11,684 bases of DNA from a virus. Taxonomy: Duplodnaviria > Heunggongvirae > Uroviricota > Caudoviricetes. The stretch lies in the IMG/VR virus record IMGVR_UViG_2585427784_000006. One strand, written 5' to 3'. Both the position numbers and the translations under genes were made by a program. This document shows positions 9,834 through 10,042 of the stretch, one piece after another (positions within the stretch are counted from its first letter, which is position 1; the number at the start of each line of letters is the position of its first letter). Under the pieces are notes generated by a model. That model worked only from the letters and a program-made list of their open reading frames with translations. It was not told the DNA's origin and made no database searches.

Positions 9834-10042
9834 CTGTCCCCTAAAATGACAGGAATTGTCAAAAACTTTGACTACAAAAGCAGCAAAGGTCTTATATTCC
9901 CATCCGATGGCGTATCGATGCCCAGCTTCACGTTTCAGCTCTCAATCTTCGAGATGCAGAAGAAATTACCACAGGATTACGCGTGGAATTTTGCCGGATA
10001 AATGGTTCGCGTGGACCTTCAACTGCCAATGTTTATCCCGGG
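9834..10042 (+). pseudogene. cspF: cspF/cspH-like cold-shock gene, disrupted (start-codon lesion and -1 frameshift)
   Basis: Frame 1 from ATG 9846 encodes [22 protein letters not shown], then runs into unrelated sequence to a TAA. The Csp-like continuation [42 protein letters not shown] is in the -1 frame from ~9910, consistent with a 1-nt deletion near GATGGC-GTATCG. The expected MSxK start (SD TAAGGAG at 9822-9828) is CTG at 9834, and no stop follows the Csp-homologous end. Confidence 0.55.

Follow-up and report, generated by a model that had tools for sequence, protein, structure and literature searches.

The cspF locus and its prophage

The window, i.e., the whole stretch of 11,684 nucleotides that was analysed, belongs to a Qin-like lambdoid prophage of Escherichia. 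From its left end it contains pinQ (1–591), a tail-fibre assembly gene (689–1270, minus strand), a DUF1441 gene, cspI (6434–6646, minus strand), the genes rzpQ/rrrQ/ydfR/essQ (7010–8643, minus strand), ynfU (8735–8956), cspB (9320–9535, minus strand), the cspF remnant which is the subject of this work (9834–10042, plus strand), the Q antiterminator gene ydfT/quuQ (10211–10963, minus strand) and finally ydfU. The Qin prophage of K-12 MG1655 has the order essQ-ynfU-cspB-cspF-ynfS-ydfT-ydfU; the window is syntenic with it, and so are the annotated carriers of the same allele. The remnant is therefore found where a cspF gene belongs, in a Qin-type lambdoid prophage between cspB and the gene for the Q antiterminator. 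The two neighbouring cold-shock genes are intact, as originally predicted: cspB has 0 differences from its K-12 counterpart, and cspI is a full-length open frame of 70 amino acids.

A scan against Rfam gave zero matches in the cspF remnant. Elsewhere in the window the matches are two cspA thermoregulators (RF01766), one over the leader and coding region of cspB (9304–9696, minus strand, 158.8 bits) and one over that of cspI (6407–6792, minus strand, 112.8 bits), and a full-length IS009 RNA (RF02111, 226.7 bits) at 723–921 on the minus strand, within the tail-fibre assembly gene.

An open reading frame of 661 codons at 2000–3985 (minus strand) fuses a terminase gpA ATPase domain (residues 40–263) to a capsid domain (residues 363–658). 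Related genomes have ~5 kb of extra DNA at this site, including portal and protease/capsid genes, so that an internal deletion has left the prophage of the window defective. The best-matching genomes align to the window from position 1265 onwards only (89% coverage), and the end carrying pinQ and the tail-fibre assembly gene (1–1264) must therefore be joined differently here; a Pin-mediated inversion of the tail-fibre segment and a deletion are both possible.

A terminator scan found a GC-rich hairpin at 10081–10104, with an A-run on one side and a T-run on the other, in the interval where the cspF remnant and quuQ/ydfT converge. It has been kept to the right of the 258-bp deletion described below and is conserved in K-12, ET670, phage 2H10 and phage Tritos; the loop varies with the allele (TATA or CATC) and the stem is conserved. 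The hairpin is a putative bidirectional terminator, and it may double as a terminator of the tR' type for the late operon downstream of Q.

A cspF gene split over two reading frames

The Csp homology was originally described as split over two frames with the break near 9910, and this is what we find. Codons 1–26 lie at 9834–9911 on the plus strand in the original frame and match positions 5–27 of the NCBIfam profile NF012007, “cold shock-like protein CspF”; codons 27–68, ending with STANVY, lie at 9911–10036 on the same strand in a shifted frame which uses base 9911 a second time. Read in frame 0 from 9834, the residues after codon 26 are unrelated and a TAA stop is reached at 9999–10001. The shifted frame has no stop after NVY, also as predicted, the natural one having been lost in the 258-bp deletion; it stays open until 10370–10372, which gives 153 codons without a stop running antisense into quuQ. 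A CspF gene is an uninterrupted frame of ~70 codons ending with NVYLS and a stop. In the window this frame is broken at 9910/9911, a premature TAA is present at 9999 and the natural stop is deleted.

The NF012007 profile has 70 positions and a curated cutoff of 111 bits. Restoration of the missing T gives a product of 68 residues with a score of 135.4 bits (E 4e-40) over positions 1–68. This is above the cutoff, and a Csp homology of such strength is in no way to be expected by chance. What the window actually encodes is a residual frame of 51 codons on the plus strand (9846–10001, from ATG 9846 to TAA 9999–10001), which is Csp-like in its first 22 residues only; the product scores 35.1 bits over positions 5–27, below the threshold of the family. 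With the repaired product above the cutoff and the encoded product under it, the DNA descends from cspF and encodes no member of the CspF family. The 51-residue product has been deposited verbatim as “hypothetical protein” on 115 contigs.

The two deletions

Alignments to K-12, ET670, phage 2H10 and the metagenome contig SKEK01000857.1 place the frameshift at 9910–9911 (plus strand), where one T has been lost from GGT|CGT (Gly26|Arg27). The second lesion is a deletion of 258 bp with its junction at 10035|10036 (plus strand), as seen from alignments to K-12, ET670 and 2H10; the missing segment is also present in SKEK01000857.1. The deletion takes the last base of Tyr68, codons 69 and 70 (Leu-Ser), the TGA stop, all of ynfS and 104 bp beyond. 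A T of the right flank happens to take the place of the lost base of Tyr68, and microhomology is absent from the junction. According to the MG1655 annotation ynfS (b4750) is a small gene of 29 codons with a hydrophobic C-terminus. Since it lies wholly within the deleted segment, carriers of this haplotype are without YnfS as well as CspF.

Both lesions are derived relative to the orthologues in K-12, ET670 and 2H10, all of which are intact. These three encode the protein in one frame and carry one extra T.

An intact progenitor and a mosaic patch

Metagenome contigs were scanned for sequence of the window type, allowing any base at the site of the lost T, and one contig, SKEK01000857.1, was found. 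Over the 203 nt compared, its cspF has 0 differences from the remnant save the extra T. It has the CTG discussed below and the divergent right flank of the window, it retains the 258-bp segment with the cspF stop and ynfS in a form identical to that of K-12, and it encodes an uninterrupted frame of 70 codons ending with NVYLS and a stop. The allele in the window is therefore the allele of SKEK01000857.1 plus exactly two deletions. It also follows that all amino acid differences between the window and K-12 predate the breaks, because the substitutions, like the CTG, are already present in SKEK01000857.1; relative to K-12 CspF there are eight of them (R3P, T11N, G14Y, G17S, T22F, V30A, L59S and A64T).

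It should be noted that SKEK01000857.1 could in principle have arisen by recombinational repair of the pseudogene instead of being its ancestor. An exact look-up of its protein, in both the 70- and the 66-residue form, gave no match in a collection of 15 billion proteins, and the pattern with the T restored was not found among the IMG/VR viral contigs. From these two results the intact progenitor allele is very rare.

The remnant and its right flank show a sharply bounded patch, ~9875–10170, which is ~9% divergent from K-12 and ET670, whereas its flanks are ~0.5% divergent. In SKEK01000857.1 the 258-bp segment of K-12 type lies in the middle of this patch, a fine-scale mosaicism typical of lambdoid phages. 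We considered whether the divergence of the patch is decay which accumulated after inactivation and rejected this, as the intact SKEK01000857.1 already has every substitution of the patch. The patch is therefore a pre-existing mosaic allele.

The initiator codon

A Shine-Dalgarno-like TAAGGAG at 9822–9828 (plus strand) is followed after 5 nt by the initiator position, where the codon (9834–9836) is CTG. The original prediction took this CTG to stand in the place of an ATG. The CTG and its spacing are as described, but the expected codon is TTG: cspF and cspH of K-12 and the homologues in Enterobacter sp. and Brenneria populi (~65% identity) all start with TTG behind TAAGGAA, and because all four agree TTG is the conserved initiator of the CspF/CspH family. 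The window thus departs from the arrangement of the family, TTG 5 nt after TAAGGA(A/G), by one T>C transition. For annotation this means that CspF and CspH begin at TTG and not at ATG.

The CTG is not peculiar to the broken gene. Alleles of the ET670 type combine it with an otherwise intact frame of 70 codons and are annotated as coding sequences by PGAP, and the full-length protein of this CTG type is present on at least 1,000 contigs. Since the CTG is also found in the intact progenitor allele of SKEK01000857.1, it is older than the breaks and does not necessarily inactivate the gene. The three lesions originally proposed are in this way reduced to two; the frameshift and the missing stop are inactivating deletions, while the CTG predates them and occurs in intact alleles. 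In reporter assays CUG initiates at ~1–2% of AUG, and UUG is in the class of 10–100% (bioRxiv 10.1101/063800); by analogy the CTG probably lowers the expression of cspF.

The retention of a weak start codon across the CspF/CspH family hints at translational control. One may go further and suppose that the conserved TTG serves a deliberate low-level or condition-dependent control and that the widespread CTG was a first, silent step which turned the gene off and paved the way for the deletions, or else that the CTG is a genuine natural non-canonical start in E. coli. The CTG did precede the deletions, but we consider either of these readings rather unlikely.

Distribution of the broken haplotype

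The sample consisted of 5,426 complete E. coli genomes. The segment 9700–10200 of the window has matches in 1,744 of them, and 214 records match at ≥99% identity. A query spanning the deletion junction was covered in 216 genomes, and a query with the T restored in a background of the window type also matched in 216 genomes, in none of them perfectly. Synthetic queries were built, one with the T restored together with the 258-bp deletion and the other with the frameshift and no deletion; neither of these combinations, i.e., no intermediate with a single deletion, was present among the 5,426 genomes. The two deletions are therefore completely linked and occur together in ~4% of complete E. coli genomes.

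The same haplotype is present in the representative genome of Escherichia ruysiae and in Escherichia phage Tritos. The frameshift occurs in 38 IMG/VR contigs, each of which has the 258-bp deletion as well, and the CTG was assigned to all 38 (35 directly, two more with a SNP at the junction and one which is cut off). NCBI PGAP labels the identical sequence [quoted passage not shown] The haplotype was also encountered in JAGZPX010000007.1, a contig of 22.9 kb which is labelled as a metagenome-assembled genome of Veillonella parvula and contains this stretch of E. coli prophage including the cspF pseudogene; this contig is almost certainly a binning contaminant.

It had been suggested that the break might be a sequencing or assembly error in a gene which is truly intact in the source organism. 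Indels of 1 bp are the commonest kind of sequencing error, and the frameshift is of this kind. However, exactly this frameshift recurs, along with the 258-bp deletion, in 216 independently sequenced genomes, in E. ruysiae, in Tritos and in 38 IMG/VR contigs, the lost T lies outside any homopolymer (GGTCG), and a deletion of 258 bp is no artefact of base-calling. The population data thus exclude the suggestion, to which we give practically no weight. The 1-bp and 258-bp deletions are genuine, heritable mutations; they are derived, they are linked, and they are distributed over genomes, viral contigs and two species as described.

Constraint and further decay

Seven SNPs segregate within the haplotype, and all seven are non-synonymous in the ancestral frame (I8P, Y14C, K15R, R55W, R60H, A65P and A65T); the statistical weight of this is low, with ~0.13 expected under neutrality alone, a small sample and closely related carriers. 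The high identity of the carriers is due to recent common ancestry, and identity as such cannot separate neutrality from constraint.

A more eroded copy is found in E. coli ECGI0523 (CP178306.1, 1623003–1626192). It shares the frameshift and the 258-bp junction, its initiator region has been lost, and there are many additional indels and substitutions. From segment to segment, the Qin-like remnant in this strain differs from the window in 7–23% of the alignment columns, and indels are numerous. As a remnant so eroded shares both lesions, the lesions are old. The SNPs, small in number, and the erosion in ECGI0523 fit a neutral decay.

The original prediction allowed for a programmed frameshift, and the same data bear on this. 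A programmed −1 shift of the ribosome at ~9910, or slippage during transcription, might yield a full-length Csp-like product. In favour of this, each half of the homology reads without a stop in its own frame, and conservation of the haplotype from carrier to carrier is good. Against it, the junction GAT GGC GTA has neither an X XXY YYZ heptamer nor a homopolymer, and the 79 nt that follow (9912–9990) fold at −13.1 kcal/mol (z = +0.34), a value which 122 of 200 shuffled sequences equalled or bettered. In the intact relatives one extra T keeps the gene in a single frame, a ribosome which had shifted would enter the 153 codons antisense to quuQ without meeting a stop, the copy in ECGI0523 has decayed further, and the polymorphisms within the haplotype are all non-synonymous. 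Without slippery site or structure, with relatives in a single frame and with no stop after the shift, programmed frameshifting is excluded; we can see scarcely any probability for it.

A different proposal is that the remnant has been co-opted, either for a short peptide from the 51-codon frame or as an antisense or cis-acting RNA in the Q-dependent late transcript from quuQ to cspB and the lysis genes. The Shine-Dalgarno sequence and the terminator hairpin have been retained, in an active phage the remnant runs antisense to what is presumed to be the late operon, and the 51-residue product recurs in the databases. This recurrence is, however, accounted for by shared ancestry. A scan of 9500–10300 for consensus sigma-70 promoters gave none, ATG 9846 sits 17 nt from the Shine-Dalgarno sequence, and a start at the CTG would reach the ~1–2% of AUG cited above (bioRxiv 10.1101/063800). 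Furthermore, the variants I8P, Y14C and K15R fall inside the 51-codon frame, which has been destroyed altogether in ECGI0523. We regard co-option as very unlikely, although the residual frame or its transcript could retain some activity.

Proposed origin and spread of the pseudogene

The reading which we hold with confidence is that the region is a non-functional cspF pseudogene, the relic of a prophage moron encoding a cold-shock-domain paralogue, in a Qin-like defective lambdoid prophage. The starting point would have been a divergent intact cspF allele in which CTG had already replaced the TTG of the family. Loss of one T at Gly26/Arg27 shifted the reading frame for the last two-thirds of the domain, so that the TAA at 9999–10001 came in frame, and an illegitimate deletion of 258 bp removed the natural stop and the downstream ynfS. 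The outcome would be at most a peptide of 51–55 residues with ~22–26 Csp-like residues, i.e., roughly the first third of the domain, and the broken allele should not be able to produce a cold-shock-domain protein. The broken haplotype would then have spread by phage transfer and recombination, drifting neutrally. The loss of function, the neutrality and the order of events are what we infer from these comparisons.

The core of the original prediction, an inactivated cspF paralogue beside intact cspB and cspI, holds, and PGAP calls the identical sequence a pseudogene. The part concerning decay has to be modified: the paralogue is inactivated, but the decay did not take place in this one strain; the allele is old and fixed and moves with a lineage of lambdoid phages. 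The pseudogene is not new as such, as PGAP flags it in hundreds of genomes.

The function of CspF is unknown, and the protein is without most of the aromatic RNA-binding residues (PMC6719143). Over-production of CspF had little effect in a recent study of Csp specificity (PMC11648934). Tritos is prophage 3 of the adherent-invasive E. coli strain LF82; it is induced spontaneously, forms siphovirus particles and makes plaques on MG1655 hsdR−, and the morons expressed from it include CspB and CspI, not CspF (PMC9928086). Since Tritos is active with a dead cspF, the phage carries the dead gene without apparent cost.

The gene affected is a prophage gene of unknown function and in that respect the finding matters little. 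It does provide a clean series of moron decay, consisting of an intact progenitor, a derivative with two deletions and a later, more eroded copy, and it illustrates how an active temperate phage can carry a dead moron, without further change, through both E. coli and E. ruysiae. The haplotype, with the frameshift and the 258-bp deletion including ynfS, can serve as a marker of the lineage of Qin/Tritos-like phages.

Comparison with known systems

The closest paralogue is cspH of K-12 (b0989), which has a TTG start behind TAAGGAA and shares the ends MSRKMTGIVK...NVYLS. In contrast to the remnant it is intact, and it is situated at another chromosomal locus where it adjoins cspG. The repaired product of the window scores 106.9 with the CspH equivalog model, below the cutoff of 141.

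cspF of K-12 (b1558, NP_416076.1) in the Qin prophage has the same locus, the same neighbours (cspB and ydfT/quuQ) and the same position of the Shine-Dalgarno sequence as the remnant, and with the T restored 59 of the 68 alignable codons specify the same residue. The K-12 gene starts with TTG and is an uninterrupted frame of 70 codons ending with NVYLS and a stop, with ynfS downstream, whereas the window has CTG, both deletions and the eight substitutions.

The locus DUT84_RS24560 of E. coli AMSCJX02 (NZ_CP031105.1), which PGAP annotates as a cspF pseudogene, is 100% identical to the window over 9700–10200, and its flanks are 99.5% identical. The corresponding region of Tritos (OV696610.1) has the same frameshift, the same 258-bp deletion and the CTG, with one difference in the remnant and no gene annotated. 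Tritos is a complete, plaque-forming phage (PMC9928086), whereas the prophage of the window, with its terminase-capsid fusion, is defective.
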